A stretch of DNA of 32,000 nt from Alphaproteobacteria bacterium (GTDB lineage Bacteria > Pseudomonadota > Alphaproteobacteria > Rs-D84): NCBI GenBank assembly GCA_017475605.1, contig JAFVFD010000002.1, forward strand, positions 120,001 to 152,000, given 5' to 3'. The first letter of the stretch is position 1. Each line of letters starts with the position of its first letter. Of this stretch, positions 11,764 through 32,000 are shown one piece after another. Under the pieces are notes generated by a model. It was given only the letters and a program-made list of their open reading frames with translations. It was not told the DNA's origin and did no database searches. The translations under genes were made by a program, and so were the position numbers.

Positions 11764-11976
11764 ATGCGCGCACCAGTACAACAATTAAGTCCATCAAATA
11801 TTACCAGTGAAGTTTACACTATTTCCCCAACACAAATTGAATATATTGCCCGCATTTTTAGTGATGGTGTTGCCGACGCTATGAACATGCGCACATTTGC
11901 ACCACGTATTCGGGAAATTGCGATTCAGTCTTTACACAACGCATTACATGCTGCGCGCCACATGGGCGAAAAATAA
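11764..11976 (+). CDS. Hypothetical small protein (70 aa)
   Basis: ORF with a strong RBS (AGGGGGGAT 5-6 nt before the ATG). No recognisable motifs. Ends ~40 nt before the rnpB 5' end. Confidence 0.45.
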   Translation: MRAPVQQLSPSNITSEVYTISPTQIEYIARIFSDGVADAMNMRTFAPRIREIAIQSLHNALHAARHMGEK

Positions 11977-11981
11977 AACAC

Positions 11982-12009
11982 TTGAAAAACCTTATTTTTC
12001 CACTAAACT
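11982..12009 (+). promoter_or_regulatory. Candidate rnpB promoter
   Basis: TTGAAA - 16 nt - TAAACT. The predicted transcription start, ~7 nt downstream, coincides with the first base of the predicted P1 helix (12016). Confidence 0.4.
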
Positions 12010-12015
12010 TTACGC

Positions 12016-12345
12016 ATCAGATGCACAGGACATAGCCGTCGGGATCCCCGGCGGAGGAAAGTCCGGACTGCGTGGGACAGCATACAGGCTAACGGCCTGG
12101 CGGGGCGACCCGACGATTAGAGGAACAGTAACGTATGCGGTTTTTAACCGTTTGAAACGGCCAATCTCTATGCGCAGCAACTTCAAATAGGCCACCCATT
12201 GACCGGTCCCTGTCAGGTGGCGGGTAGAGGGCTTGATGCCCAGTGGTAACATTGGGTACAGATTGATTATGTCCGCTACCCCGTTGTTGTTGGAAACGAC
12301 TGCGGCGGGGCATGTACAGAATCCGGCTTATCGTGTATCTGATAA
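12016..12345 (+). ncRNA. rnpB: RNase P RNA (bacterial type A)
   Basis: Universally conserved P4 strands GGAGGAAAGTCCGGAC (12052-12067) and ACAGAATCCGGCTTATCG (12316-12333). The terminal P1 helix pairs ATCAGATGCAC (12016-12026) with GTGTATCTGAT (12333-12343), including one G-U pair. The overlapping track ORFs are spurious. Confidence 0.9.
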
Positions 12346-12373
12346 TAAAAATCGCGCCATCGGCGCGTTTTTA
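12346..12373. terminator. Bidirectional rho-independent terminator (rnpB on +, tolA on -)
   Basis: An A-run, the stem CGCGCC/GGCGCG with a 3-nt loop, then TTTTT. It lies between two convergent transcription units. Confidence 0.6.
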
Positions 12374-12375
12374 TT

Positions 12376-13137
12376 TTACATAACTTTACCACTGGTGGGG
12401 TAAAATGTTAATTGTATTTTTTCCCACTTGGAAAACTCATTTTCAGGCAACATTTTCAACGGTTGACAGGTATTTATTGCCGCACGTATTGTATCCAAAA
12501 CATAAGCAAATGCCGCATCAGTTTCCGCGCGCGCCGCCGATTCAAACCACACATCGCGCACCGTTCCATTTTTACGCATAGTAAGGTGTGCCACCGCACG
12601 AATATCCGAAATATCATTTCTGTTTTTATCAATTACCCAACAACGCGTCATCGCCACACGCAACGCATCAACCACCGACACATTAAGTGTGCGATTCAAT
12701 GAAACACTTTCGCGGTTAACACGAATTACCATTTTCTTCTTTGGTGCGGCTGGGACCGGATCAACCTTGATTTCTTCGGGTGTGGGTTCCGGCTTTGCAT
12801 CCGGTTTGGTTTCCGGTTCGGGTTCGGCCAGCGATGGCGATTCTATATTTTTATCGGGCGCATCGGGGGCGGGGGCAGGTTCCGGCGATTCCGTCTTTTC
12901 TGGTTTTACATCCGGTTTTGTATCTTCGATTGGGTTTGTATTATAAAGTTTTGTTTCTTCGCCCGATATCGTAACAGAATCTAAATCAATTTCTGTAATT
13001 TCAATTCTGTCCGGCGCAATTAACAACGCACGATTAACCAACACCGCAAATGACGTTACCATAACAGATATAACAATCAGATGTCCAATCAAAGACATCA
13101 GTATATTTTCCAACGAAAATTGTTTATCTGGGTTCAT
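12376..13137 (-). CDS. tolA: TolA-like cell-envelope integrity protein
   Basis: N-terminal TM anchor, a Pro/Glu/Lys-rich linker (PEPAPAPDAP...EPEPETKPDAKPEPTPEE) and a C-terminal TolA/TonB-like globular domain. Follows tolQ-tolR with a 4-nt ATGA overlap. Confidence 0.75.
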   Translation of the reverse strand: MNPDKQFSLENILMSLIGHLIVISVMVTSFAVLVNRALLIAPDRIEITEIDLDSVTISGEETKLYNTNPIEDTKPDVKPEKTESPEPAPAPDAPDKNIESPSLAEPEPETKPDAKPEPTPEEIKVDPVPAAPKKKMVIRVNRESVSLNRTLNVSVVDALRVAMTRCWVIDKNRNDISDIRAVAHLTMRKNGTVRDVWFESAARAETDAAFAYVLDTIRAAINTCQPLKMLPENEFSKWEKIQLTFYPTSGKVM

Positions 13138-13538
13138 TTTTCTGCTTTTGTGCGCAGGCCAACGCGCTGAAATCCGGAATCTTTCAATTTACCCATAACG
13201 GACATAACCGCACCATAATCGGCATGCCGGTCGCCATTTATAACTATTGATAACTGGGGGTTTTCACCACGCATCGCAATCGCGCGCTTAACAACATCAT
13301 CAACCGCCAATTCCGTCTCGTTCAAATAATAGCGACCATTGGAATCAACGCTTATTTGAATAGCATGATCGTTCCCATTTAATGCGGAATGCCCCGTATT
13401 TGGCAAATCTAAATCGATACCATTTGTCATCATTGGTGTTGTTACCATAAACACCGCCAGCAACACCGTCATAACATCAATCATAGGTGTTAATTGAATA
13501 AGTGCATCGGCATTTTGTCTGCGTCTTAATCTGGACAT
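13134..13538 (-). CDS. tolR: TolR/ExbD-family biopolymer transport protein
   Basis: 134 aa with LTPMIDVMTVLLAVFMV (TM segment with the conserved Asp) and an ExbD-type periplasmic domain. Lies between tolQ and tolA. Confidence 0.88.
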   Translation of the reverse strand: MSRLRRRQNADALIQLTPMIDVMTVLLAVFMVTTPMMTNGIDLDLPNTGHSALNGNDHAIQISVDSNGRYYLNETELAVDDVVKRAIAMRGENPQLSIVINGDRHADYGAVMSVMGKLKDSGFQRVGLRTKAEK

Positions 13539-13540
13539 GA

Positions 13541-13981
13541 TTATTTTCCACCCAATTTTTCGTATAAATCATCTGATTTTTTGGTAAACACTTGATACGC
13601 AATCGCGGCAGGTATTGCGGCAATAAGTCCCAGTGCAGTCGTCCCCAGTGCGGTTGCCAACCCCGGTGCAATAACACCAATACTGACCGATTGATTAAGC
13701 CCGATTGATGCGAAAGAATCCATAACACCCCATACGGTTCCGAACAACCCAATAAATGGCGACACACCCGCAACCATCGCCAAAAACCACAGGTTTTTAT
13801 CAAACGGTGCAATTGCATCGTCCGGTTTACCAGCCGGCTTGTTACGGCGTGCACCGCGGAAAAGACGAATTTTTTCAACAATAACCGCCCACGATAAAAT
13901 ACTGAAAATTACCAATACTATTGACGCAATTGCCGTTACAAAATCACTGGTAAACAATGTCCATAATGAAAAACTGTTCAT
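13541..13981 (-). CDS. tolQ: TolQ/ExbB-family proton-channel protein (compact, 146 aa)
   Basis: MotA/TolQ/ExbB motifs SPFIGLFGTVWGVMDSF and ALGTTALGLIAAIPAAIAYQVF. Start set at ATG 13981 (RBS GGAAGGA, 1 nt after the ybgC stop) rather than the track's 14005. Confidence 0.85.
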   Translation of the reverse strand: MNSFSLWTLFTSDFVTAIASIVLVIFSILSWAVIVEKIRLFRGARRNKPAGKPDDAIAPFDKNLWFLAMVAGVSPFIGLFGTVWGVMDSFASIGLNQSVSIGVIAPGLATALGTTALGLIAAIPAAIAYQVFTKKSDDLYEKLGGK

Positions 13982-13982
13982 T

Positions 13983-14372
13983 TTATCCTTCCTTTGCTGA
14001 ATCAAGGTGTTCTGTTATAGTTGCCGGAATGCGTTTTGCCCGCATATCCGCACCAATATAGACCACTGTAATATTCATTATAGCACAAATTGTGCCATCA
14101 TGCACGAACTTTTGTTGTAAATCCATAGATGCACCGCCTATATTGATAATTTCTGTTTCAACAACTATATCGTCGGCCAAGCGCAACGGGTGCATATATT
14201 TTATTGATATTTCGCGCACGACAAAACCATTGTCATCCGCCGGCAATTCAATTCCGCGCATCATTTCCATGCGGGCACGTTCCGCAATTTCAATATAACG
14301 ACCATGATAAACAATGCCGCCCGCATCCGTATCGGAATACGCGATTGAAAAATTGTATTTATATGTTTTCAT
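13983..14372 (-). CDS. ybgC: Tol-Pal-associated acyl-CoA thioesterase (4HBT/YbgC family)
   Basis: YSDTDAGGIVYHGRYIEIAERARMEMMR is the hot-dog-fold YbgC signature. The gene sits directly upstream of tolQ. Confidence 0.85.
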   Translation of the reverse strand: MKTYKYNFSIAYSDTDAGGIVYHGRYIEIAERARMEMMRGIELPADDNGFVVREISIKYMHPLRLADDIVVETEIINIGGASMDLQQKFVHDGTICAIMNITVVYIGADMRAKRIPATITEHLDSAKEG

Positions 14373-14997
14373 TATATCCTTCCTTTGTAAATTGCGTGGA
14401 ATCCAGGTTAAGTTCCTGTTTTAATCGTTCGGCAACACGCCCACGGATTTCATTGTATATGTCGCGCAACACCGGTTCATAGTCAAACTTTGCTGCAAAC
14501 GATTCCGAGAAAAAAGCCCGCCAATAAAAATTGTCTTTGTATGTTCCGACATACGACAAATCTTGGGCGCACATATGTTGTACCAGTGTGTCCAATATAT
14601 CCAACAATTTAACCAACTTGGATTCGGGCGATTGTCGCAATTCGTATTCATCAAAACCTTTTGCTACCACTTCATTTTGCAACAGGGCGTTTATCGTACC
14701 TATCGCAGATTGTTCCTTGGTGTGTTTTTGTCGTTTAATCTCGTCCGTCTGTTCGTGCAATGGCACATCGTGCGCAATGGCTTCTGGTAAATCATGTAAA
14801 ACACACAATTCCAAAACGCGTTCCAGATTGACCGAATGTATTAAATAGGGGTGAAAAACAATCGCCATCATTGCCATATTCCACGAATGTGATGCAACTG
14901 CCTGTTTTTTGCCGTCGGACATACGGGTTAGGCGATATTCACATTCCAATTTTTCGGCAATGCTAAGAAAATCTGTTAATTTCTTTATGTCGGTCAT
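14359..14997 (-). CDS. HD-domain phosphohydrolase (YfbR-like 5'-nucleotidase family)
   Basis: [11 protein letters not shown] ... [14 protein letters not shown] give the H...HD...D metal-binding pattern of HD_3/YfbR-type proteins. Overlaps ruvB by 4 nt and ybgC by 14 nt. Confidence 0.7.
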
Positions 14998-15989
14998 TTT
15001 TTAAGACCCAAATGTTCATAACCGCTTTCGGTTACAATACGACCACGCGGGGTGCGTTGGATAAAGCCTAATTGCATCAAATAAGGTTCTATCACATCTT
15101 CGATTGTGTCCGCGGGTTCCGACAATGCCGCCGCCAAATTATCAATTCCAACCGGCCCACCGGCATAGTGCCGAACAATCGTTGTCATATATTCGCGGTC
15201 GATTTCATCCAATCCCGATGCGTCAATATGTAACTGGAACAGGGCGGTTTTTACGGTGTCCGCCGTTATTGTTTTGGTGTTTGTTGCCGCCGCAAAATCG
15301 CGTGCACGTTTCAAAAGTCTGTTCGCAATACGCGGCGTGCCACGCGAACTGTACGCCAATGCCAACGCGGCATCATCATCAATATTTGTTCCCAAAATAT
15401 TCGCACTGCGTTTAATAATTTTTGCCAAATCCGCCGGTGAATAAAACGACAGGCGCAAATCAATACCAAATCTGTCCCGTAATGGATTCGACAATAACCC
15501 GGTACGCGTTGTCGCACCAACCAATGTAAACGGCGGCAAATCAATTCGAACACTTTTGGCCGATGGACCTTCGCCCAGCATGATGTCCAACTTGAAATCT
15601 TCCATGGCGGAATAAAGGACTTCTTCTATTGCGGTTGGCAAACGGTGTATTTCATCAATGAAAAGAACATCCATTGGTTCCAATGCGGTCAAAATTGCCG
15701 CCAAATCGCCTTGCTTGGTAAGCATAGGTGCCGCGGTTGTGCGAAAATTCGTTCCTAGTTCATTTGCCACAATGTGTGCCAATGTGGTTTTCCCCAATCC
15801 CGGGGGACCATATAATAAAACATGGTCCATGGCCTCGCCACGCGATTTCGCGCCCGCGATAAACACAGACAGGTTCTGTTTCAAACTTTCGTGCCCGATA
15901 AAGTCCGCCAATGTTTTGGGGCGAATGGTCGCCGCCATTTCATCTGGGATTGTTGGATCTAAAAATCTTTCATTTTGGTTCATTGGCAT
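14994..15989 (-). CDS. ruvB: Holliday junction branch-migration helicase RuvB
   Basis: 331 aa with Walker [10 protein letters not shown], Walker [30 protein letters not shown] and a C-terminal winged helix. Confidence 0.97.
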
Positions 15990-15991
15990 TT

Positions 15992-16651
15992 TTACAACAA
16001 CTTGTCTTCGGCATTTTCACGACCAACATAGGCCTTTAAATCATTATACATCTGGCGCAGGTCGGCCGGTTGTGAATATTCAGAATCAGCATTTTTAATA
16101 CGGATTGTTTCAAGTGAGATTTGCGCCTGTTTTTTCAACAATTGGGTAAGGTGCGTTGAAAAAGCCTTGGCATCCTCTGATTCCGCCGCCCCTTGTAACA
16201 ACAGCCCACGATTTGGACGCGGCGACAAAAACGCATAGTCTGAAATAGATGGGTCAGGGGACACCAACGCAAAACCAGACACTTCCGGTCGGCGCATCAT
16301 GGCCTGTAAAACATACCACGCCCCCAATTCGTGCCCCGCCAGCCATATTTTATCACTGTCTTCGTTTTTATTTTGTATCCAATCAATCACTGTCGCGATA
16401 TCCAGCATGTTTTCCGATGTTGTACCAATTGCGCCCTCGGAATCATTGACACCGCGATAATTAAAGCGCACAACCGAAAAACCAATATCCATAAACGCAC
16501 GAAACATCGCATAGGACACACGATCGTTCATATGATGCTTGTTTCGAGGATTCCCCGACAGTACAACCGCCAACGGTGCCGCCGGTGTTTCAGATTTATG
16601 ATATACGGCATGTAATTTGCCTGCTTCACCTGTGATAATTATGTCTACCAT
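15992..16651 (-). CDS. Alpha/beta-hydrolase-fold protein (COG2945-like) with an atypical G-H-E-L-G nucleophile elbow
   Basis: 219 aa. [13 protein letters not shown]...[10 protein letters not shown]...LVSP follows the layout of the short alpha/beta hydrolases, but Glu occupies the position of the GxSxG serine. RBS AAGGAAGG. Confidence 0.65.
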
Positions 16652-16690
16652 TATTTATACACCTTCCTTGGAATAATCAATCTTGACTAA

Positions 16691-16720
16691 TTTATAGAAC
16701 AAACAGAATACAATTTTCAA
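16691..16720 (-). promoter_or_regulatory. Candidate promoter of the hydrolase-ruvB-...-tolA operon
   Basis: Minus strand reads TTGAAA - 18 nt - TATAAA, ~40 nt upstream of the ATG at 16651. Confidence 0.35.
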
Positions 16721-16736
16721 TAAAAATATTTTTGTT

Positions 16737-16766
16737 TTGACATGAATACCCCATTTGTTTTAAGAT
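16737..16766 (+). promoter_or_regulatory. Candidate promoter of the 16793 secreted-protein gene
   Basis: TTGACA - 18 nt - TAAGAT, lying back-to-back with the divergent minus-strand promoter. Its position favours the ATG at 16793 over the track start at 16742. Confidence 0.35.
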
Positions 16767-16792
16767 TTATTCGAGAGATAAAAGGTTTTGCT

Positions 16793-17713
16793 ATGTCTAA
16801 ACTAGGATTTTTGGCTGTTTTCGCGGTTTTTAGCGCATTTAATGCGTTTGCAGAAGACTTCGTTGAATACGAAAACTTTCAGACTATTTACACCGAAACA
16901 CCGGTACAATCATATTACGCGTACCCAGATGATCCGAATTTCATTCCGGAAACTGAATTTATGCAACGCGCAGACAGTTTGGACTATGACCAAAACATTA
17001 TAAATGCGCGCGAAGCGGAATCTGCGGCACACCCGGGGGTTATGTTTGCCGACCGCCCAATGATAATTTGTCGTAATTTTGGTTGTACAAAGTTAAACGA
17101 CCGTATCACGCGTACATTTTTATTTAACAGTTTGGCAAATATGTTCATGATGAACAGCCATTCCCGCGTATATATTTGTGAAGCGGACCCGTTTTCACGC
17201 GACTGCCTGCAATCTGGCATTTCATTCCCTGTGCGCAGCGGTGTTGCCAATGCCCTGGTCAAGATTCCCAAGGCCACCATATCCCAGGTTACTCTTTCCA
17301 CCGGTCTTTCCAAGGCAACCGTTGGTATGACCTATGAATTGTTGGTTAACGGTGTTTCCCGCGTGTGCGAACCAACCGTTATGGACATTGTTATTCCTGT
17401 TAATTCCCAGGCAACATTATCAAACCGCGAATTTACATGTAACATGACCAGCGACGGTTTAAGCAATGTGTCCTTGTTGGTTAATATTGATTATATCGAT
17501 TTAGACTATGGCATTTTGGGTGGTTATTATTCACTTGGGATGCAGGGTCCAACCACCGGTGGTGGCACAGGATACGCGTTATTCAAAACAGAATTCACGA
17601 CACGTGGTTTACAATTCCGCGCGGCCACTGATGACGATATGATGGGCGCAAATGGCGGTAATATGTTGACTATCCAACCGGGTGAATATGCCGTTGGGCC
17701 GTTGGCAAAATAA
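16793..17713 (+). CDS. Secreted hypothetical protein (306 aa, 6 Cys)
   Basis: From ATG 16793 the protein begins MSKLGFLAVFAVFSAFNAFA/EDF, a canonical Sec signal peptide. An AAAAGG RBS lies upstream. No family recognised. Confidence 0.7.
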   Translation: MSKLGFLAVFAVFSAFNAFAEDFVEYENFQTIYTETPVQSYYAYPDDPNFIPETEFMQRADSLDYDQNIINAREAESAAHPGVMFADRPMIICRNFGCTKLNDRITRTFLFNSLANMFMMNSHSRVYICEADPFSRDCLQSGISFPVRSGVANALVKIPKATISQVTLSTGLSKATVGMTYELLVNGVSRVCEPTVMDIVIPVNSQATLSNREFTCNMTSDGLSNVSLLVNIDYIDLDYGILGGYYSLGMQGPTTGGGTGYALFKTEFTTRGLQFRAATDDDMMGANGGNMLTIQPGEYAVGPLAK

Positions 17714-17791
17714 TCTGTGGTCGTGTCGGGGCAATGGTGGCGATTTTTACGCACACGACGCATTACCACAGCACATTGGACCATATAGAAG

Positions 17792-18427
17792 ATGAACAAA
17801 ACTATTCTTGTTATTGACGATGACGAAGCATTAAACAAAACACTGGCGCGCGGTCTGCGCACCGATGGGTTTGATGTTATTTCGGCATTAAGTGCAGAAG
17901 ATGGCGCATCTGTCCTGGCACGCATTCGGGTTGATGCCATTGTTTTAGACCGTATGATGACTGGAATTGACGGGCTTAGTTTCCTTCAAGATTTGCGCGC
18001 CGGTGGCGATACAACCCCGGTTATAATGCTGACCGCGATGGGTGGGGCAGAAAACGCAATTGCGGGCCTTTCGGGCGGGGCGAACGATTATCTTGCCAAA
18101 CCATTTCAATTACGCGAACTGATATTGCGCCTTAATAATATTATCAAAACAAATGATGCCCCCACGAAAATGCCGGCGGGACTTACATTTGCAGATGATG
18201 AATTTTTTGTTGATACACCAAAGGGCACAAAACTTTTCGCATTATCCGGCGAAGAAAAGAAGTTATTAACCCACCTTGTTACGCCGATGGGGAATATCGC
18301 ACCGGCATCGCCAATGGTCGCAAAACGCTTGCGCGCAAAATTAAATGGTGTATTATCAAACCTGGATATTATAACAATTCGTGGCCAGGGCTATAAAATT
18401 ATAGACCAAACCACAAACAACAACTAA
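17792..18427 (+). CDS. OmpR-family response regulator with a shortened effector domain
   Basis: Receiver domain (ILVIDDDE, AIVLDRMMTGIDG, LTAMG, YLAKPF) and a C-terminal winged-helix remnant (RLRAKL...ITIRGQGYKI). At 211 aa it is about 20-25 aa shorter than typical family members. Confidence 0.85.
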   Translation: MNKTILVIDDDEALNKTLARGLRTDGFDVISALSAEDGASVLARIRVDAIVLDRMMTGIDGLSFLQDLRAGGDTTPVIMLTAMGGAENAIAGLSGGANDYLAKPFQLRELILRLNNIIKTNDAPTKMPAGLTFADDEFFVDTPKGTKLFALSGEEKKLLTHLVTPMGNIAPASPMVAKRLRAKLNGVLSNLDIITIRGQGYKIIDQTTNNN

Positions 18428-18431
18428 CAAA

Positions 18432-19724
18432 ATGGTGAAAAAGATGAGATTAATGCCCAGAAGTTTTCTTGCCCGAACAATATTGATGGTTTTGTTGCCG
18501 TTGATTATCGCACTGGCCATTGTCGCAAATGCGTTTTTTGGAAACCACTGGGAACGCGTCCATGCCACAATGGCAAACACAGTTGCCGGCGAAATATCAA
18601 CCTTGATGAAATTTTTAAACGAAGGCAACACCGATGCCATGAACACAATGGCAAACAATATTGGTATTTCTGTGTCTATAAATGATACTGCAACAAAACG
18701 CAAACACGACGATAATCACGCGATGGAGGCAGGACCATTGTCGCGCCAGTTGAAGCAACGCCTTAACCAACGGGCAAGCATCTATATCAACCGCGGCAAA
18801 CGCCAGGTTCGCATAGAAGTTCCAACAAACGACGGTCGTGTGGCGGCATTTGGTCTGTCTATGTACCGTATTTATTCCACCAGTGCCGAAGTTTTCCTTA
18901 TTTGGTTAATTGGGTCTATTTTGATTGTGGGCGCATTGGTTGCACCGTTCATAATTGCCCATACACGCAGTATCCGCCGCATTGCCAAGGCCGCAAATCG
19001 TTTCGGTCGCGGGCTGGATGCGCCGTGTTTTGAACCATCGGGTTCCCGCGAAATTCGCGAAGCGGCATCAGCCATGATTACAATGAAGGAACGCCTTAAT
19101 AGATATAATCGCACACGAACAGACATGCTTAACGCGGTAAGCCATGATTTAAAATCGCCACTGACCCGCATGCGTTTGGCGGTTGAAACCGATGCCGCAT
19201 CAAAAGAAGATCTTTTGCGCGATATTGACCGCATGGCAGAAATGGTTAACGGCTATCTGGCATTTGCGCGTGGCGAAATGCCGGAAATAGAACAGGCAAC
19301 CGAATTGCCATCTATGTTAATTCGTACCGCACGCGATGCCGCACCCAAAAAGAAAATCATTACCGATTTTCCAGATGCGCCGGCGCAATTCTATGCGCGC
19401 CCGATGGCACTGGCACGCGCGTTCGCCAACATTATTGAAAATGCGGCACGTTATGCTAAAAAGACCATAAAAATAACAGAACGTGATTCCGCGGATATGG
19501 TTGAAATCATTATCGAAGACGATGGTCCAGGCATACCAGATGACAAAAAGGCGGACGCACTGCGCCCATTTGTGCGCCTTGACAATGCCCGCGGTACAAA
19601 AACCGGCGGAACAGGACTGGGGTTGTCTATTGCGCAAACGGCCATTGAAAACCATGGCGGACAAATATTCTTGGAAAACAGTGATTTGGGCGGTCTGCGC
19701 GTACGCGTTGTATTACCAATATAA
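18432..19724 (+). CDS. EnvZ-like sensor histidine kinase
   Basis: Two TM segments flank a periplasmic region. H-box SHDLKSPLTRMRL, N box ENAARYA, G1 DDGPGIP and G2 GGTGLGLSIA. Starts 4 nt after the response-regulator stop. Confidence 0.87.
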   Translation: MVKKMRLMPRSFLARTILMVLLPLIIALAIVANAFFGNHWERVHATMANTVAGEISTLMKFLNEGNTDAMNTMANNIGISVSINDTATKRKHDDNHAMEAGPLSRQLKQRLNQRASIYINRGKRQVRIEVPTNDGRVAAFGLSMYRIYSTSAEVFLIWLIGSILIVGALVAPFIIAHTRSIRRIAKAANRFGRGLDAPCFEPSGSREIREAASAMITMKERLNRYNRTRTDMLNAVSHDLKSPLTRMRLAVETDAASKEDLLRDIDRMAEMVNGYLAFARGEMPEIEQATELPSMLIRTARDAAPKKKIITDFPDAPAQFYARPMALARAFANIIENAARYAKKTIKITERDSADMVEIIIEDDGPGIPDDKKADALRPFVRLDNARGTKTGGTGLGLSIAQTAIENHGGQIFLENSDLGGLRVRVVLPI

Positions 19725-19741
19725 TTTGTGGGGTATCGGAA

Positions 19742-21454
19742 ATGAATCTTTATAAATATGTATCTGATAAAATAAATGAAAAACTGGGGGCGACGGTAAA
19801 CTTGGAAACACCGCGCAACCGCGAATTTGGCGATTTTTCAACCAATGTTGCGATGGTTATGGCGCGTACCGCCGGCAAAAACCCACGTGAATTGGCGGGC
19901 GATTATGTTGCAAAACTGGCGGAATTAGATTTTGTGGAAAACGCATCGATTGCGGGTCCGGGCTTTATTAACATTAAATTACGCGATGATTTTATATGGA
20001 AAAATGTTGCCGCACCGGAACAGATTGCCGCCGCAAAACCAATGGTTATTGATATGGACTATGGCGCATATAATGTCGCAAAGTCATTACATATTGGGCA
20101 TTTGCGTACATCCATCGTTGGCGACACATTAAATCGCATCGCACGTTTCGTTGGGCATAAAACGATTTCATATAATCACTTGGGCGACTGGGGACGTTCA
20201 ATGGGAATGGTTATCGCATGGATAAAACGCATTCACCCAGACTGGCCGTTTTTCCAGGATAATTTCGATGCGTCTGCGGACTATTCTTCGTACGCGATGC
20301 CGGTTGCAGAACTGGACACATATTATCCCGCCGCGGCCGCATTGGCAAAAACAGATCCTGAATTTATGGAATTGGCGCAAAACATAACCGCCGATTTACA
20401 AAAGGGGCATCCTGGATACAATGCCTTGTACAATGTGTTTATACCGGTATCGCTTGCCGCAATGGACAAGATTATTCAACAATTGAATATGTTACCATTT
20501 GACAGAAACCTGGGCGAAAAGAACGCCGCGCTGTACGAAGAACCGGTTGAAAATATTTTACGCGATAAACATTTGTTGGAACAAAGTGATGGTGCCGAAA
20601 TCGTTGTTGTAAAACGCGATACCGATACCGCACCAATGCCACCAATTATGTTCCATAATTCGCGTGGGGCAACGACATATGATGCAACCGACATTATGGC
20701 ATTGTATTATCGCAAAATTACCGACAACCCAGACAAGATTATATATTTAACCGACAGCCGCCAAAAACTGCATTTCGAACAGTTGTTCCGCGTTGCCGAA
20801 TTAACAGGACTGTTTCCGGCGGAAAATCTGGAACATATCGGATATGGAACAATAAACGGCACCGACGGCAAGCCGTTCAAAACCCGCGACGGTAATGCGG
20901 CTGGGCTGTCTGATATTATGCAAATGGTGCGCGATGCGGCGCGTGCGCGCGTTGCGGAATCGGGTAAAAACCTGGACGACGAAACGATTGACCAAATCGC
21001 ATTGGCTGCGTTAAAGTTCAACGATTTGATGCACGATTTGCGTTCGGACTATATTTTTGACCCGTCGGCGGTAACCAGTTTTGAAGGGCGCACTGGACCA
21101 TATATTTTATATACCGCCGTCCGCTTGAACAGCATATTAAACAAAGTGCATGGTGAAAAAGCCGCACCAAAAGATTACAAATTAAACGCGGACGAACGCA
21201 ATTTGTTAATTCAAATTATGGATTTTGAACGCACTGTTTTGGCGGCATTTGATAAACGCGCAACCGATATGATTGCGAACTATACATATGATTTGTGCCA
21301 ACTTATCAACACATTCTATCACAATTGTCCAATTATGCGCGACGATATTGATGACGCAACGCGGGGCGCGCGTATCCACATTGTACAAATTGCCCGCGAC
21401 ACATTGGCAACGGCGATTGATTTAATGGGGTTGCAGATTCCACGCGAAATGTAA
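19742..21454 (+). CDS. argS: Arginine--tRNA ligase
   Basis: 570 aa class-I aaRS with the HIGH motif (SLHIGHLRTSIVGD) and the ArgRS N-terminal and anticodon-binding (DALR-type) architecture. Confidence 0.93.
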   Translation: MNLYKYVSDKINEKLGATVNLETPRNREFGDFSTNVAMVMARTAGKNPRELAGDYVAKLAELDFVENASIAGPGFINIKLRDDFIWKNVAAPEQIAAAKPMVIDMDYGAYNVAKSLHIGHLRTSIVGDTLNRIARFVGHKTISYNHLGDWGRSMGMVIAWIKRIHPDWPFFQDNFDASADYSSYAMPVAELDTYYPAAAALAKTDPEFMELAQNITADLQKGHPGYNALYNVFIPVSLAAMDKIIQQLNMLPFDRNLGEKNAALYEEPVENILRDKHLLEQSDGAEIVVVKRDTDTAPMPPIMFHNSRGATTYDATDIMALYYRKITDNPDKIIYLTDSRQKLHFEQLFRVAELTGLFPAENLEHIGYGTINGTDGKPFKTRDGNAAGLSDIMQMVRDAARARVAESGKNLDDETIDQIALAALKFNDLMHDLRSDYIFDPSAVTSFEGRTGPYILYTAVRLNSILNKVHGEKAAPKDYKLNADERNLLIQIMDFERTVLAAFDKRATDMIANYTYDLCQLINTFYHNCPIMRDDIDDATRGARIHIVQIARDTLATAIDLMGLQIPREM

Positions 21455-24147: not shown

Positions 24148-25113
24148 ATGAAACAATATCTTGATATTTTAGATAATGTTATGACAAACGGTACATGGTC
24201 CGACAATCGTACCGGCATAAAGACATTGCGCGTACCATCGGGCGCAACATTTGAACACGATATGGCAACAGGCTTCCCATTGGTTACAACCAAGAAAATG
24301 GGATTAAAAAATATCGCAACCGAACTGGAATTTTTTATTCGGGGAATTACCGACAAAAAATGGTTGACTGACAGGAACTGTCATATTTGGGACGAATGGT
24401 CAAACCCAGAAAAATGGCAACCGTTGTATGAAGAACGGGTCGCCACATATGACCAATATTTGTTCAAACTGACCGATGAAGAAAAAACCAGTATAAAAAA
24501 TCAACTTATGGCGGATGGACGCGATTTAGGTCCCATCTATGGTTGGCAATGGCGGCACTTTGGCGGGAAATATAAATTTGATGAAAAACAAATCGACAAG
24601 GACCCAACAAACAATTTTGACAAGCGCCGCCCCGGAATTGACCAGGTTGCCACCGCAATTTATGAAATCAAGCACAACCCGACAAATCGTCGCATCATTG
24701 TAAACGCATGGAATCCCGTTGATATGGGAAAAATGGCATTGCCCCCATGCCATGTTATGCACCAGGTGCTTGTTCACGACGGCAAATTGAACCTTATATG
24801 GACACAACGTTCATGTGATATGTTCTTGGATATTCCATATAATATCGCATCATATGCGTTGTTATTGTTGCTCTATGCCAAGGAAGCAGGCCTTAAACCC
24901 GGCATATTAAAGGGTGAATTACACGATGTTCATATCTATGAAAATCATATTGACCAGGTCCGCAATCAACTGACCCGCACACCGTACAAATTACCAACGG
25001 TCGAAATACCAGACGAAAATTGGCGGGGGATGTTAAAGTGGTCGGCCGCCAATGGATTTAAGTTAAAAGACTATATCTGCCACGAAAAATTACGTGGCGC
25101 GGTCGCGCGCTAG
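24148..25113 (+). CDS. thyA: Thymidylate synthase (ThyA, long form with small-domain insert)
   Basis: MKQYLDIL...DNRTGIKT...GFPLVTTKK...NAWNP...ALPPCH (catalytic Cys)...QRSCDMFLDIPYNIASYALL. At 321 aa it resembles the long ThyA variants. Confidence 0.95.
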   Translation: MKQYLDILDNVMTNGTWSDNRTGIKTLRVPSGATFEHDMATGFPLVTTKKMGLKNIATELEFFIRGITDKKWLTDRNCHIWDEWSNPEKWQPLYEERVATYDQYLFKLTDEEKTSIKNQLMADGRDLGPIYGWQWRHFGGKYKFDEKQIDKDPTNNFDKRRPGIDQVATAIYEIKHNPTNRRIIVNAWNPVDMGKMALPPCHVMHQVLVHDGKLNLIWTQRSCDMFLDIPYNIASYALLLLLYAKEAGLKPGILKGELHDVHIYENHIDQVRNQLTRTPYKLPTVEIPDENWRGMLKWSAANGFKLKDYICHEKLRGAVAR

Positions 25114-25160: not shown

Positions 25161-25191
25161 TTGACAAATATATTATTTTGTGTTATATAAT
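25161..25191 (+). promoter_or_regulatory. Candidate promoter of the 25213 orphan gene
   Basis: Consensus TTGACA - 17 nt - TATATA (or 19 nt - TATAAT). Confidence 0.4.
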
Positions 25192-25212
25192 AATGGAACA
25201 AAAGGTAAAATA

Positions 25213-25704
25213 ATGAAAAAACAAATAAAAGATATGACCAAGGCCGAAAAATTATCACGCATTGAACGTTTGTCTTTAAAATTTCATGATATTGAAACGA
25301 TACCGTCCGTATTGTTATCGGACGAGGCCAAACGCACACAGTCAGATAAAACAATAATTGACGCGATTAACAAATTGGAAACACTGGAAATTCAAAGCCA
25401 CCAACTAGAACAAGCCCATTCGGATGTCATGGCGCGTGATTTACGCCCATTAAAGCGTATTTATGATTACGAAACCGAAAAACTGGCCAAGAAACAAGAA
25501 TCTGAAAACCAAACATATCTTTCGCGCAGAATACCTGTTCCACAACACATTCAACAAAAACACATTAGCGAAAAGAAAGAATTGGAAACCAAACACGCAA
25601 ATCGCAAAAAAGCAGCATTGGCCCCAACAGAAACTAAACTTGCGGAATGTAAACAAAAAATATATTCGGTATTTATGGACGCAGTCCGATATCTGTACAG
25701 GTAA
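25213..25704 (+). CDS. Hypothetical charged, probably coiled-coil protein (163 aa)
   Basis: ORF from ATG 25213 (MKKQIKDMTKAEK). Rich in K/E/Q with heptad-like stretches and no signal peptide. It has its own promoter and terminator. Confidence 0.55.
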   Translation: MKKQIKDMTKAEKLSRIERLSLKFHDIETIPSVLLSDEAKRTQSDKTIIDAINKLETLEIQSHQLEQAHSDVMARDLRPLKRIYDYETEKLAKKQESENQTYLSRRIPVPQHIQQKHISEKKELETKHANRKKAALAPTETKLAECKQKIYSVFMDAVRYLYR

Positions 25705-27569: not shown

Positions 27570-27595
27570 TTTTTGCTAAAAATCGTACAAACATA

Positions 27596-27630
27596 CCGAG
27601 TCTGTTATTGACAGACTCGGTTGTTTTTTT
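27596..27630 (+). terminator. Rho-independent terminator after rpsA
   Basis: 10-bp perfect stem CCGAGTCTGT/ACAGACTCGG with loop TATTG, followed by TTGTTTTTTT. Confidence 0.8.
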
Positions 27631-27637
27631 CTAACAT
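27608..27637 (+). promoter_or_regulatory. Candidate promoter of the giant gene, embedded in the rpsA terminator
   Basis: TTGACA (terminator loop and 3' arm) - 18 nt - TAACAT. The purine-rich GAGGAAGGG follows at 27647-27655. Confidence 0.3.
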
Positions 27638-27689
27638 TCAAAGAAAGAGGAAGGGTACTATCATTCAACGACACACAATTCTTAAACGA

Positions 27690-30600
27690 ATGTTTGTGGC
27701 GACTTTGTTTGTCGTGGGGGTCTTTATTTGCCCGAATACTCCGGTGTCTGCGATTCAGCGCAATGTTCCGCAACCAACAAATACGCGTACGGTTGTTAAC
27801 AGAACATCCCCTAAAACAGTACCGGCGCGCACAACGGTATCCAGGGCTACAATAAACCAATCAACCTCATCACAGACACCTGTGAAACGCGCTGCGATAT
27901 CAACCAGCCAAAAAGCATCCCGAAATCCGATAAACGCAACAAAAACACAAAAACCAGCTGTCGAATCTGCAACACAAACTCGTACGATTGTACAAAAATC
28001 TTCTAGAAGCACGACCCGCCGTTATCAAGCAAACACTCAATCACGCACACAATCGCGCACAGCCACAATACAAAACAGAACCACACCTCCAACTAATGAC
28101 TCTACGTTGGTAAAAATGCACATTCCTGCCGATTTACGTTCAAGCCCAAACATTCAAGCATATATAACTATGTCGGGTGGGGATGATTATATTGTATTTA
28201 AATTATTCAAAAACAAATTACCCAATTTATCGACACTGTTCCAAAATCTGGGCGGAAACATGGGGGTCTTTGCCGAAAACAATACCACCAGCACCCAGAT
28301 TGTGGCAACAAACGGGACCCCGACAACGACTTCTGATCGCGAAGTTTATTTACTGAAACAACAAACAGGTGGCGGTGGTGGCGCATGTGCAAGTAATTCC
28401 GATTGTGGCGACGGAACATGTAATGCCAGTGGTATCTGCCAGTGCTTTGATAACGCATCCAAGGGGGCCAATGGCAAATGCACATGTAATTCAGGATATT
28501 ACCAGTCTGGTGGCGCATGCGTTGCGGACACATCGGGCACTGATACGAATAATTTAACATTTACAACATGCAACACCAATTCGGAATGTGCCAGTGGCCA
28601 ATGTAATTACGGCGTGTGTGTTAAGGATGACCCCAGCAGCTTTAAGTGTAACGAAGAAACAATCCAACCCGTATTCGCCATCACTGTAAAAGGAACATCG
28701 GTTTTTAATGTAAATATTCGCGCCGCAGGAACATTCTTTCTTTTTGCTCCGCACGGTGGGGTTATATCTAGTAATGGTACTACGACTTGTACGTCTAATA
28801 TTATAAAATTAGAACGCCCAACAACGGCTGGCACAGGAACGTTATCCGCCACCATTACTGATTCAGACGAATACACAACGCTGTATTTTGGTGGCATGGC
28901 GACCGAATATCCGAATAACGATACCCCAGTGATTGAATTTCAAAATACCACAGGGACATATATTGATTACAGACCATATATCTATGAAGTGTCCGGCTCG
29001 ATTGGTGCGATATTCCCCACAATTGGCGATGCGACCAGTGTCGATTACACAAAACAACCACGTTTCAAGGGGTTGTTTTCTAACGCGGTTAATCTGCGTT
29101 CTATACCGTCTGGGTTATTTGACGGCATCCATGGCCAACCGGTTGCGGATATGTTTTCTGGTGTGTTTTCTGGCTGCACCGGTTTAACCGGTTCAATTCC
29201 GGACAGATTATTTGCCGGCCTGACCGGAACGGCAGATAGCTTATTCGCGTCGACATTTTATAATTGCTCTGGGCTAACAGGTTTAATTCCCGCAAACCTG
29301 TTTGACGGTCTGACCGGCCCATACAAGCAACGTATGTTCATTAACACATTTGCTTATTGCAGTGGCCTTACTGGCAATATTCCAGATGGTTTGTTTGGTA
29401 ATTTGACTATCAATGATCCACTCGCCTATACAGCACAAACATTTAGCATGACATTTGACCGCTGCAGCGGCTTAACCGGCTATGTTCCATCCAGCATGTA
29501 TAAAGGGTTGGACGGGAAATCGGTCAATAGCACTTTTGGTACAAATGGCGATACATTTTATGGTTGCACAGGAATGGCAACATCTTGCGAAAATGGTTAT
29601 ATAAAAGATCCCGCCGCCGCAAACTATGAGCAATATTGGAGCAATCATGTCGCCTGTATCCCAGATGGCAGCAGCAGTCCCACACCGCCGGCCGCGCAAC
29701 AAACCATGACAATACCATTTTCAACGGCCGATTATGAACTGGGCAATGACACCACCGCAGATGAAGTATTTACCACAAGTTCACGCACAATTAACTTGGC
29801 ATCCGTACTAAACAATGCAACTGGTACGGTTACTGTTGACTGGGGCGACGGCACCAGTGTTGCTACAATCACCGCAGGTGATGCACTGCCATCACATACG
29901 TATACCGGCAACAGTGTATATAACATCACATTAACGGGCGACATTCCCGAAATGAAATCGACCAGCGACAATGTTGTGGCAACATGTACCGGTAATGCCG
30001 ATGAAATTCGTATCAACGAAACCCAATGCGCACGAACCAAGTTCAGAATTAACACAACGTCTGATGCCGACGAGTTTTTAATCTATATCGGTGCCGCGGG
30101 AACATTCTATATCGATTGGGATGATGGTTCCGCACCAAGTGTAATTACACATGCGACACCAATTGCGGTACCGTATTCCCATAAATATACAACGGTGCAA
30201 TCGCGAACGATTCGCATTGGCGGTTTGGCAACGGAATACCCACCATTGAATATCAACCCCGCCATATCATTTTTCTATAACAACATTTCACACCCCAATT
30301 ACATACACAGTGTTTCCGGTTCGTTGGGCGAATTGTTCCCCAGTTATGGCACTGCCGTTGGGCAAACACCACGATTTCGCAACACATTTCTGTATGCGAC
30401 TAATATGTACACAATTCCGAACACTTTATTCAGCGGGATAAGCAACGGTTCGGGAACCGTTGCGCCGATATCAAGTATGTTCGAAGGAACGTTTAAACAC
30501 TCCGGTCTGACCGAAATACCGACGGGTCTGTTTGCCGAAATTGGGGGCGCACCGGCCAACAGTATGTTTGAAGAAACGTTTTATATGGCGGAAAATCTGG

Positions 30601-32000
30601 CTGGCGAGATTCCATCGGATTTATTCGCCGGCATTCGCGGCGCACCGGCGGAACAAATGTACGAACGCACATTTGGTAGCACAAAATTAAGTGGCGAATT
30701 GCCTGATTATCTGTTTGGCAATTTGAATGGTGCGCCACAATATGCGATGTTCATGCAAACATTTGTCAACGACACGGGGCTAACGGGACAAATTCCGGAT
30801 CATTTGTTTGGCGATTTGACTGGTTCAATTGATGTTCGCTGGGCGTTTTATGAAACATTCAAGGGGTGTTCTAAACTAACCGGATATATACCATCAACAT
30901 TATTTGGCACCGTCACGGGCAATGCCGGCGATGGAACATTTAGCGACACATTCACTGGAACTGGCTTGTTGGAAAATATATGCCCCAGTAATTTTCATCC
31001 ATATCCCACCTATAACAACCGATTTGCAACATATTGGGATGGCCATATTGCATGCGAAGCCGATGATGCGATTCCTGCTGACCCGGCGCTGGGCACGTGC
31101 ACCGACGCAGAAAATGAAATTGTCGTTGGCGATGGCAAATGTGTTACATCAAAATTCATTGTCGAAACAAAATCTGTAAGTAAAGTGGTATTTTCAATCA
31201 GTGCCGCCGGTATATTCTATTACGATTGTGGCGATGGCAAAGGGGGGCATGTAATCAACCGTACCGATGACACAACACCGCGTACATATTATTGCAACTA
31301 TGACACCACCGGCAAATACACTGTCCGATTTGCCGGCACTGCAACTGGTTATTCAACCGACGAACAGACCGCCGCAATAAGCTTCAATTATAACGAATCA
31401 GATTCGTCAAAGTGCGACATCACATCAATCACAGGCTCGTTGGGTTCCGTATTTCCAAGCATTGATTCCACTGGCACTAATGGCAAGACTCCGCGTTTCA
31501 CTAACACATTCAAGTATTGTGGGCTTGACTCCATTCCCGAAAACCTGTTCAGTGGCGTAAATGGACAACCAGTATCATATATGTTCATGGGAACATTTAG
31601 CGGCGCAAAGGCAACGTCTATTCCAGCCGGATTATTCAGTGGTATAAACGGCACGCCCACACCCCACCTGTTTGAAGGCACATTCAGTGGCATGACACTG
31701 TTAAGTGGCACCATAAGCTCTGATTTATTCGCGGGAATCCGTGGCGAACCAGCACCGTATATGTTCAAATCCACGTTCCAAAATTGTTATGATAATTTTT
31801 ATAAACGGTCTTTTTCAATTGATGACGATTTATTCAGCGGAATATCTGGCGCACCCGCGACAAGCATGTTTGAAAGCACATTTGAACACACAACATTGAA
31901 CAAATTACCACCGCGCTTGTTCCGCCGTATATCCGGCGCACCGGCGACAAAAATGTTCGCACATACGTTTGATGGAACATCGCCATATGAGGGTGGTACA
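27690..32000 (+). CDS. Giant secreted modular repeat protein (at least 1,437 aa; 3' end beyond the window): signal peptide, basic leader, EGF-like Cys knots, and at least 3 super-modules of PKD-like domain + ~30-aa repeat array + Cys cap
   Basis: Absent from the ORF track because there is no stop in the window. The frame of ATG 27690 is open to 32000 (4,311 nt = 1,437 codons); I translated it fully and checked coordinates at several landmarks. MFVATLFVVGVFICPNTPVSA is a signal peptide. The true start may be non-canonical at 27663 (see findings). Confidence 0.85.
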   Translation, partial: MFVATLFVVGVFICPNTPVSAIQRNVPQPTNTRTVVNRTSPKTVPARTTVSRATINQSTSSQTPVKRAAISTSQKASRNPINATKTQKPAVESATQTRTIVQKSSRSTTRRYQANTQSRTQSRTATIQNRTTPPTNDSTLVKMHIPADLRSSPNIQAYITMSGGDDYIVFKLFKNKLPNLSTLFQNLGGNMGVFAENNTTSTQIVATNGTPTTTSDREVYLLKQQTGGGGGACASNSDCGDGTCNASGICQCFDNASKGANGKCTCNSGYYQSGGACVADTSGTDTNNLTFTTCNTNSECASGQCNYGVCVKDDPSSFKCNEETIQPVFAITVKGTSVFNVNIRAAGTFFLFAPHGGVISSNGTTTCTSNIIKLERPTTAGTGTLSATITDSDEYTTLYFGGMATEYPNNDTPVIEFQNTTGTYIDYRPYIYEVSGSIGAIFPTIGDATSVDYTKQPRFKGLFSNAVNLRSIPSGLFDGIHGQPVADMFSGVFSGCTGLTGSIPDRLFAGLTGTADSLFASTFYNCSGLTGLIPANLFDGLTGPYKQRMFINTFAYCSGLTGNIPDGLFGNLTINDPLAYTAQTFSMTFDRCSGLTGYVPSSMYKGLDGKSVNSTFGTNGDTFYGCTGMATSCENGYIKDPAAANYEQYWSNHVACIPDGSSSPTPPAAQQTMTIPFSTADYELGNDTTADEVFTTSSRTINLASVLNNATGTVTVDWGDGTSVATITAGDALPSHTYTGNSVYNITLTGDIPEMKSTSDNVVATCTGNADEIRINETQCARTKFRINTTSDADEFLIYIGAAGTFYIDWDDGSAPSVITHATPIAVPYSHKYTTVQSRTIRIGGLATEYPPLNINPAISFFYNNISHPNYIHSVSGSLGELFPSYGTAVGQTPRFRNTFLYATNMYTIPNTLFSGISNGSGTVAPISSMFEGTFKHSGLTEIPTGLFAEIGGAPANSMFEETFYMAENLAGEIPSDLFAGIRGAPAEQMYERTFGSTKLSGELPDYLFGNLNGAPQYAMFMQTFVNDTGLTGQIPDHLFGDLTGSIDVRWAFYETFKGCSKLTGYIPSTLFGTVTGNAGDGTFSDTFTGTGLLENICPSNFHPYPTYNNRFATYWDGHIACEADDAIPADPALGTCTDAENEIVVGDGKCVTSKFIVETKSVSKVVFSISAAGIFYYDCGDGKGGHVINRTDDTTPRTYYCNYDTTGKYTVRFAGTATGYSTDEQTAAISFNYNESDSSKCDITSITGSLGSVFPSIDSTGTNGKTPRFTNTFKYCGLDSIPENLFSGVNGQPVSYMFMGTFSGAKATSIPAGLFSGINGTPTPHLFEGTFSGMTLLSGTISSDLFAGIRGEPAPYMFKSTFQNCYDNFYKRSFSIDDDLFSGISGAPATSMFESTFEHTTLNKLPPRLFRRISGAPATKMFAHTFDGTSPYEGGT
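29055..29534 (+). repeat. Array 1 of ~30-aa coding repeats (5 units) inside the giant gene
   Basis: QPRFKGLFSNAVNLRSIPSGLFDGIHGQPVAD / MFSGVFSGCTGLTGSIPDRLFAGLTGTADS / LFASTFYNCSGLTGLIPANLFDGLTGPYKQR / MFINTFAYCSGLTGNIPDGLFGNL... / FSMTFDRCSGLTGYVPSSMYKGLDG... Confidence 0.8.
30366..30938 (+). repeat. Array 2 of ~30-aa coding repeats (6 units)
   Basis: TPRFRNTFLYATNMYTIPNTLFSGISNG... / MFEGTFKHSGLTEIPTGLFAEIGGAPANS / MFEETFYMAENLAGEIPSDLFAGIRGAPAEQ / MYERTFGSTKLSGELPDYLFGNLNGAPQYA / MFMQTFVNDTGLTGQIPDHLFGDLTG... / FYETFKGCSKLTGYIPSTLFGTVTG... Confidence 0.8.
31488..32000 (+). repeat. Array 3 of ~30-aa coding repeats (at least 6 units, truncated by the window edge)
   Basis: TPRFTNTFKYCGLDSIPENLFSGVNGQPVSY / MFMGTFSGAKATSIPAGLFSGINGTPTPH / LFEGTFSGMTLLSGTISSDLFAGIRGEPAPY / MFKSTFQNC...DDDLFSGISGAPATS / MFESTFEHTTLNKLPPRLFRRISGAPATK / MFAHTFDG... 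Confidence 0.8.

Follow-up and report, generated by a model that had tools for sequence, protein, structure and literature searches.

A giant alphaproteobacterial gene encoding five modules with homology to the PKD and leucine-rich repeat unit of BspA-family proteins

The stretch of DNA analysed here (the window; 32,000 nt of contig JAFVFD010000002.1, from an alphaproteobacterium of the Rs-D84 lineage, in the numbering of which positions are given) ends within a giant gene, which opens with an ATG at position 27690, 3' of rpsA, and continues through base 32000 without a stop codon. The complete gene was recovered by looking up the proteins encoded by the neighbouring thyA and rpsA genes, which led to the 217 kb scaffold_93 of the ENA assembly ERZ28654170; this is identical to the window along the 17.8 kb in which the two overlap. 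Extending beyond the end of the window, the gene corresponds to positions 11915-20392 of the locus L080, with its 3' end at the window-equivalent position 36167. The 8478 nt frame is intact, its GC content and that of its third codon positions (GC3) are similar to those of neighbouring genes, and the exact 2825 aa product (P0195) is found on two ENA contigs. A protein from an independent metagenome-assembled genome (MAG) at NCBI, GenBank MBR2285973.1, is 99.96% identical, and is named 'hypothetical protein [Alphaproteobacteria bacterium]'. The protein contains five copies of a module made up of a predicted beta-sandwich, a solenoid of repeats mostly 31 residues long and a Cys-containing cap, which profile comparisons show to be a remote homologue of the sandwich and leucine-rich repeat (LRR) unit, PKD_4 with LRR_5 or DUF285, of the Bacteroidales BspA family.

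Table 1. Features of the giant gene and the region immediately upstream, in window numbering (HMM, hidden Markov model; i-E, independent E-value; pLDDT, predicted local distance difference test).
Feature	Positions	Strand	Basis or detail
Intrinsic-terminator-like hairpin and T-run, 3' of rpsA	27595..27630	+	12-bp stem with 6 GC pairs (hairpin proper 27595-27621), then TGTTTTTTTC
Giant gene, 5' part (4311 nt, residues 1-1437)	27690..32000	+	complete gene 8478 nt; product 2825 aa, predicted to be secreted
Sec-type signal peptide MFVATLFVVGVFICPNTPVSA	27690..27752	+	predicted; sequence reading
Basic low-complexity tract, T/S/Q/N/R/P-rich, ~145 residues (~22-167)	27753..28190	+	sequence reading; no Pfam match
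Cys-rich EGF-like / ephrin-receptor-like spacer, residues 232-319	28383..28646	+	sequence reading
Module 1, residues 320-657	28647..29660	+	module HMM, i-E 2e-48
Module 1, degenerate sandwich	28665..28991	+	
Module 1, solenoid	28992..29582	+	~5 repeats
Module 1, Cys cap	29583..29657	+	C632-C656
Lone PKD-like sandwich between modules 1 and 2, residues ~690-761	29757..29972	+	VDWGDG...HTY...YNITL; HMM, weak PKD_4
Module 2, residues 766-1122	29985..31055	+	module HMM, i-E 2e-54; AlphaFold2 pLDDT 91.8
Module 2, Cys hairpin	29985..30029	+	
Module 2, PKD-like sandwich	30030..30314	+	
Module 2, solenoid	30315..30980	+	6 repeats
Module 2, Cys cap	30981..31055	+	C1098-C1122
Module 3, truncated by the end of the window	31098..32000	+	module HMM, i-E 4e-55
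Module 3, Cys hairpin	31098..31142	+	
Module 3, sandwich	31143..31430	+	
Module 3, solenoid	from 31431	+	

The modules were delimited with an HMM built from the sandwich and first repeats of family members, which detected five full copies in the complete protein, starting at residues 326, 781, 1152, 1925 and 2440 and having about 5, 6, 17, 2 and 7 repeats respectively; over the rest of the window it revealed no further family members. A preliminary description, made from the window sequence, had counted three modules of some 300-360 aa and left out the separate PKD-like domain between modules 1 and 2, which aligns with positions 15-76 of the module HMM (i-E 5e-8). Module 3 is not of the proposed size, proving in the full gene to be about 747 aa long and ending at residue 1883 after its ~17 repeats and cap. 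Translation from position 27690 placed the anchors said to be shared by the first three modules exactly where they had been marked (AAGTF at 28722 and 30093, AAGIF at 31203, SGSIG at 28992, SGSLG at 30315 and TGSLG at 31431), and they are collinear in a three-way alignment with 66 invariant columns. The WGDG turn is missing from module 1, which has also lost the first Cys of its hairpin. The pattern given for the fourth anchor was approximate, the spacing between its Tyr and [AV]I being seven rather than six in modules 2 and 3. By blastp, modules 1 and 2 are 36% identical over 298 aa (E 2.6e-43), modules 2 and 3 are 40% identical over 310 aa (E 2.6e-53) and modules 1 and 3 are 35% identical over 213 aa (E 3.7e-23), similarities well above those expected by chance. 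All five modules close with a C-x(20-31)-C cap: SCENGY...YWSNHVAC in module 1, ICPSNF...YWDGHIAC in module 2, KCPTGY...FEKHW...YRVAC in module 3, GCGADGY...FESQWSNHIMC in module 4 and VCPYNT...YETEWGGYVVC in module 5, with YWSNHVAC at residues 649-656 and YWDGHIAC at 1115-1122, as originally noted.

N-terminal to the modules, the basic low-complexity tract may form a disordered stalk, or possibly a tether that binds the envelope. The segment of about 60 residues that separates it from the Cys-rich spacer ends in a Gly5 run, and has no Pfam match; the spacer has none either in the window copy, whereas two homologues match Pfam Ephrin_rec_like at 4e-18. Modules 4 and 5 are separated by a 284-residue spacer (residues 2143-2426; L080 18341-19192) composed of a Cys-rich part and an extra domain, 'YLFKIKFQDQNGAPI...PGYTHRWRY', which recalls Listeria-Bacteroides/Flg_new repeats and has no Pfam match at E<=0.1. 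Within module 5, residues 2573-2700 (L080 19631-20014) have 'I[DN]TSSATNT' in place of the repeat loop 'G-x-G-x-P-A', in four successive 32-residue units that resemble one another far more closely than other repeats of the protein do, which suggests a recent local amplification of this variant.

The relationship to BspA-type proteins was found by profile alignment. Using hhalign, the family aligned with the Bacteroidales BspA-like protein P0037 (99.8%, E 1.9e-29, 358 columns) along its sandwich, its repeats and its C-terminus, each repeat falling in register with its counterpart. P0037 matches Pfam LRR_5 with 43 bits (cut-off 27.7), and its 641 relatives are Bacteroidales proteins with DUF285, LRR_5, PKD_4, Mfa-like and BACON domains, which where named are each a 'BspA family leucine-rich repeat surface protein' (Phocaeicola/Tannerella). 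The sandwich and first repeats also aligned with P0208 (98.6%, E 1e-15), a protein of PKD_4 plus DUF285 (49.6 bits for DUF285), such that the sandwich fell on the PKD_4 region. In a profile search of the PDB, 4fs7, a structure of BspA type, was matched at E 4e-5 and the LRR of FLS2 at 8e-5; a match to the candidate phyla radiation pilus protein PamR in the family-model scans was dismissed as spurious. The sandwiches of the modules in the window fall below every Pfam threshold, and the lone domain scores 16.3 bits against PKD_4 over residues 710-749, below the cut-off of 27; PKD_4 is matched by six of 38 homologues (E<=0.01), and two members of the family exceed Pfam thresholds for PKD models, P0071 with PKD_4 (33.2 bits) and P0076 with PKD (30.4 bits). 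PKD-type motifs can be read in module 2 (IDWDDGS...YSHKY...RTIRI) and module 3 (YDCGDGK...YYCNY...KYTVRF), and in degenerate form in module 1. Because the module HMM matches the lone PKD-like domain, and relatives pass the PKD and PKD_4 thresholds, the sandwich is PKD-related by sequence, and as judged from these alignments the module is a remote, lengthened derivative of the PKD and BspA/DUF285 LRR unit.

Module 2 was modelled with AlphaFold2 (AF2) from a 38-sequence alignment, giving a mean pLDDT of 91.8 and a predicted template modelling score (pTM) of 0.90. The model begins with a hairpin at residues 1-17, followed by seven more strands at residues 20-112 (seven to nine strands in 1-112 altogether), past which it is strand-poor, with short strands at model residues 217-219, 246-249, 277-281 and 309-311. 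These are spaced by 29-32 residues and each lies on the 'xG[IL]xG' of a repeat; one short strand per 29-32 residues at a fixed motif is the pattern that a solenoid with one parallel ladder would be expected to show. Modelled separately, the solenoid has a pLDDT of 89.2. The order of sandwich, ~30-aa repeat solenoid and Cys cap put forward in the preliminary description stands up well. The 31-residue consensus of the repeat is I-P-x-x-L-F-x-G-I-x-G-x-P-x-x-x-M-F-x-x-T-F-x-x-C-x-G-L-T-G-x, and this is the length of 104 of 167 repeats in homologues, the range being 28-33 plus four of 39-44; within the giant protein it varies from 28 to 39. Across 110 family units of 31 residues, 17 positions are strongly conserved (I1, P2, L5, F6, G8, I9, G11, P13, M17, F18, T21, F22, C25, G27, L28, T29 and G30), and positions 3, 4, 7, 10, 12, 14-16, 19, 20, 23, 24, 26 and 31 are nearly free, with Tyr the most frequent or joint-most frequent residue at 16, 19 and 23. 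The aromatic, aliphatic and Cys positions (Phe, Leu, Ile, Met and Cys) would form the core of the solenoid, and the free positions of 'M-F-x-x-T-F-x-x-C', which alternate with them, would create an exposed, variable face.

The closest characterised system is that of the BspA-type proteins (Tannerella forsythia BspA and other Bacteroidales proteins; PF13306/TpLRR, PF03382), which are secreted surface proteins, as the giant protein is predicted to be, likewise have tandem repeats with a Phe/Leu/Ile/Cys core and the pattern '...F..C..LT.IP..LF...', and have undergone multigene expansion in host-dependent organisms; many Bacteroidales members, such as P0208 and P0260, also have a PKD_4-type WGDG sandwich immediately N-terminal to the repeats. 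The differences are nevertheless substantial. The unit is most often 31 residues long here, as opposed to 26 in P0037 and 23 in TpLRR (PMC6701047), and includes an additional 'G-x-P-x-x-x-M-F' segment; the modules are found by no Pfam or NCBIfam BspA or LRR model, and superpose poorly in Foldseek, including on 4fs7 (template modelling score, TM, <=0.25). Furthermore, they are bracketed by Cys hairpins and caps and strung together up to at least eight times (one protein has 17 stretches that match), in an alphaproteobacterial host and without a type IX secretion system (T9SS) signal, lipoprotein or transmembrane anchor. PKD and BspA-like LRR surface proteins are already known, and what is new is a divergent, long-period, Cys-capped, multi-module branch of them.

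With PKD domains (PF00801/PF18911), the sandwich shares the WGDG turn, the 'Y-x-H-x-Y...G-x-Y-x-[IV]' strand pair and a size of around 80-90 residues, as well as the existence of a free-standing copy and of relatives above Pfam thresholds; it differs in a C-terminal addition, 'GG.ATGY....AAISF....I..ISGSLG.IFP', that leads into the solenoid, and in module 1 being devoid of WGDG. The Listeria internalins are also bacterial surface binders in which an LRR solenoid is rigidly fused with a beta-sandwich, and some family members are annotated 'InlB B-repeat-containing protein' on account of their Flg_new repeats. However, the order is reversed, with the sandwich N-terminal to the solenoid in the giant protein, and no Pfam internalin or LRR model is matched; internalin repeats are 22 residues long and have a helical N-cap. 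The resemblance is an analogy of design, rather than membership of the same family. Disulfide-type Cys motifs also lie on both flanks of the solenoid in eukaryotic extracellular LRRs (LRRNT/LRRCT; ectodomains of plant LRR receptor-like kinases), and the plant-specific LRRs share an 'L-[ST]-G-x-I-P-x-x-L' motif and provide the best, non-significant, Foldseek matches and weak HMM matches. Yet each cap has a single Cys pair where those LRRs have two, the repeat has 31 residues instead of 24 and the LRRNT and LRRCT models are unmatched, so this similarity is probably convergent or very remote.

The module is widespread. Only 37 proteins came back from a word-indexed search that used module 2 as query, and in none of them did a Pfam domain cover the module; as this is a large under-count, an exhaustive HMM search of metagenomes with their alignment was used instead, and gave 9212 clusters at 50% identity with E<=1e-3, of which 4249 reached E<=1e-10 and 1844 E<=1e-30. 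Among them are proteins of 6000-7600 aa, in which as many as 17 stretches match. When one genome of each species was scanned with a trimmed sandwich alignment, 219 loci were confirmed, and the 76 distinct loci among the best 80 all come from gut or rumen MAGs classified as 'Alphaproteobacteria bacterium' or 'Candidatus Enterousia', and a single genome (RGIG3039, RGIG6362 or RGIG2127, for example) can hold six to eight family loci. Of the open reading frames (ORFs) at the fetched loci, 37 contain a single module and 24 contain two, and the number in the others rises to at least eight. Homologues have N-terminal hydrophobic signals comparable to that of the giant protein, Cys caps and hairpins are common in the family according to a loose regular-expression census, and adhesin-type accessory domains are found on some members (Flg_new/InlB B-repeat, Ephrin_rec_like and PKD). 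Most single-module homologues (P0001-P0012 and others) depart from the giant protein at either end, and have a conserved N-terminal domain of about 100 residues, 'VNV.YIH...ANM.YLL..D.AN...YAT..AADT', two of which weakly match LemA. Most of them also have a Cys-free C-terminal cap, 'YLYE.WP...TGLSDY..IP..WK', shared with P0037, so that the family has two cap types. We found no description of this family in the literature on Enterousia, Rs-D84 and BspA, PKD or giant proteins.

How the five modules arose was considered by comparing 161 modules from the fetched loci. The preliminary description had explained its three copies as an old triplication within one gene, maintained by selection, and it was correct that they are old and conserved: the anchors are collinear, identity between modules is 35-40%, and similarity at the DNA level is limited to traces, in patches of 35-75 nt at 70-81% identity, all within the conserved repeat motif. 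It also fits this account that, in a neighbour-joining tree and an identity matrix which concur, modules 3 and 5 fall near each other, but they are the only two to do so. There are five copies rather than three, and the best matches of each are modules of other genomes, at 41-50% identity, with sister modules ranking 19th to 152nd of 160, such that between 18 and 151 modules from elsewhere outscore them. The locus itself is variable. The rpsA of the window is 89-95% identical to that of three MAGs carrying family loci (L014, L033 and L075), which places the window in this small-genome gut and rumen lineage; in the one with 95% identity, an ORF of four modules that is only ~33% identical to the giant protein follows rpsA, whereas in the other two adk comes directly after rpsA, with no gene between, and a family gene lies on the other side of rpsA. 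As modules are closer to those of other genomes than to their sisters, and ORFs with one, two and up to at least eight coexist, the module is, on these comparisons, the building block of a large multi-gene family, which expands through duplication and fusion, and probably through recombination. This fits better than a private triplication of one gene, which we regard as having little probability. That the repeats might be an assembly artefact or a decaying pseudogene deserved consideration because repeat-rich genes are often misassembled in metagenomes, and BspA-like genes are known with assembly gaps (PMC4206474). Yet their DNA has diverged too far for collapse, the frame is open with the GC and GC3 of its neighbours, and the two ENA contigs and the independent MAG copy agree, which effectively refutes this explanation and bears out the earlier view that the copies reflect neither a recent duplication nor an artefact.

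Ca. Enterousia and the order Rs-D84 to which it belongs have genomes of under 1 Mb, are purely fermentative and do not respire; they lack standard sugar, amino-acid and peptide transporters, are predicted to be obligate symbionts or parasites that draw metabolites from other cells, and have unexplained membrane proteins proposed to mediate contact with other cells (PMC12306168). BspA proteins mediate epithelial attachment, invasion and co-aggregation, and both trichomonads and 'Ca. Mycoplasma girerdii', which has a reduced genome, possess expanded BspA-like families (PMC4206474; PMC6701047). We favour, with moderate confidence, the reading that the giant protein is secreted and, through its several modules, acts as an adhesin or binds a ligand. 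It would be exported by the Sec pathway, then displayed on the cell or released. Within each module, which as a rule has a short Cys-Cys hairpin at its start and a Cys-Cys cap at its end, the sandwich would pack against the solenoid of 31-residue units, and each solenoid would offer a separate ligand-binding face, on which the Tyr-rich positions 14-16, 19-20 and 23-24 would be exposed. The sandwiches and caps would act as rigid joints, and the basic low-complexity stretch at the N-terminus as a stalk or tether. Multivalent binding could then fasten a bacterium that depends metabolically on others to a partner cell, or to the mucus or epithelium of a host, with divergent modules and paralogues having differing specificities. 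That the protein is adhesive, which surface binds, that disulfides form and how the protein is held at the cell are all inferred.

A number of results weigh against this proposal. LRR_5, DUF285 and the other LRR models of Pfam are unmatched over residues 1-1437 at E<=1, as are LRR_5, DUF285 and LRR over residues 1438-2825 at E<=0.1; the modules have no BspA or LRR match in an NCBIfam scan, and only one of 38 homologues reaches LRR_5 (E 0.0043). Foldseek comparisons to the PDB gave no significant match for the whole module (best E 0.1), there being no PKD structure among the top 50 and the sandwich part matching best to carbohydrate-binding module, cupin and jelly-roll folds at E>=0.1, nor for the solenoid (best E 5e-3, TM <=0.25, root-mean-square deviation >11 A), although all of the 50 best solenoid matches, none of them significant, are LRR proteins, including 4fs7. 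The LRR label derives from remote sequence homology and the periodic pattern of strands. Of the sandwich, solenoid and cap architecture originally proposed, the AF2 models reproduce the sandwich and the coil, but the cap has a pLDDT below 50 in both, so that its support comes solely from conservation of sequence, and disulfide caps in the envelope of an anaerobe are an assumption. No anchor is visible, as the C-terminus lies three residues past the last cap and there is no lipobox, and no dedicated secretion partner adjoins the gene, downstream of which are adk and corA. This arrangement also speaks against a C-terminal sorting signal, an autotransporter and type I secretion system or T9SS signals, and no route of export across the outer membrane of the presumably diderm cell can be seen.

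Two other functions were weighed against that of an adhesin. The protein might contribute to a structural coat, an S-layer-like or glycocalyx-like protective or spacing layer in which the modules are rigid spacers and their diversity serves evasion of immunity or phage, as could be supposed from the existence of proteins of up to 7600 aa, the many paralogues per small genome, the lack of a recognisable ligand-binding pocket and a T/S/N content of 12.6/9.2/7.2%, compatible with glycosylated surface layers. However, no S-layer, SLH or self-assembly domains appeared in the Pfam and NCBIfam scans, the nearest characterised relatives, the BspA proteins, are adhesins, and conservation is limited to the core whilst the surface is free; lattice proteins need conserved contacts, hence this pattern is better suited to binders, and we consider a coat unlikely. 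Alternatively, the solenoids could capture soluble glycans, peptides or metabolites and pass them to uptake, offsetting the lack of standard transporters in Rs-D84. The Tyr-rich variable positions do resemble those of carbohydrate-binding surfaces, and PKD and BACON-type domains neighbour the repeats in Bacteroidales relatives, but neither a transporter, a TonB-dependent receptor nor a SusD-like gene adjoins the giant gene, and a multi-module design of thousands of residues would be unusual in binding proteins that feed transporters, which makes nutrient capture quite improbable.

Beyond the adhesin reading, we raise a further idea that is possible, but rather doubtful: that the 31-residue 'IP..LF.GI.G.P...MF..TF..C.GLTG' unit constitutes a separate structural class of LRR-like solenoid, and the module an exchangeable recognition cassette for the attachment of Rs-D84 and Ca. 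Enterousia to their partners. For this unit AF2 gives a confident model, and there is neither a significant superposition in the PDB nor a model in the domain databases. Duplication, fusion and swapping of cassettes among paralogues would account both for the distance between sister modules, which are not each other's nearest relatives, and for a syntenic locus that is completely different among related genomes. If this were true, cassette shuffling would alter partner or host specificity, and the family would provide the first molecular handle on the attachment targets of uncultured, obligately dependent gut alphaproteobacteria. Rs-D84 and Ca. Enterousia are widespread and predicted to be cell-dependent, and ~8.5 kb of a genome of the <1 Mb type is spent on the giant gene. 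Genes of the family are at present annotated as 'hypothetical', or named after their accessory domains only; recognising the divergent PKD and BspA-like LRR module gives them an annotation, and a domain definition usable for a Pfam or NCBIfam model, and names concrete candidates for partner identification. The known LRR architectures gain from it a Cys-capped variant of unusually long period, whilst existing concepts are left to stand.

The strong terminator-like hairpin after rpsA makes the giant gene a transcription unit of its own; promoter-like hexamers are found at 27608-27664. The position of the start codon may differ from that given above. The sole Shine-Dalgarno-like run, GAGGAAGG at 27648-27655, lies 34 nt 5' of the ATG at 27690, and 5-8 nt upstream of the in-frame ATC and ATT at 27660 and 27663; a start there would prepend 'IIQRHTILKR', supplying the basic n-region that the signal peptide otherwise wants, and one of these may be the true start codon rather than the ATG. 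The start called by NCBI is two codons past the ATG. A lipoprotein signal was discounted on reading the sequence, 'VFIC' being a non-canonical lipobox, and horizontal acquisition of the gene was weighed and set aside, its GC and GC3 being in line with those of neighbouring genes.

Elsewhere in the window, ARAGORN predicted neither tRNA nor tmRNA, and a full-length class A RNase P RNA (Rfam RF00010, 195 bits) lies on the forward strand at 12017-12346, in the ORF-free gap between secA and an ORF of 253 aa. The latter (12376-13137, reverse strand) is one of four ORFs amid the housekeeping genes that have no Pfam match, along with those of 769 aa (865-3174, reverse strand), 323 aa (16742-17713, forward strand) and 174 aa (25180-25704, forward strand); the 323 aa ORF is directly upstream of a response regulator and histidine kinase pair. 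The thymidylate synthase gene at 24148-25113 on the forward strand encodes 321 aa and matches the 266-position Pfam model end to end, which implies about 55 inserted residues, and its product and the one from the MAG with the 95% identical rpsA share only 66% identity.

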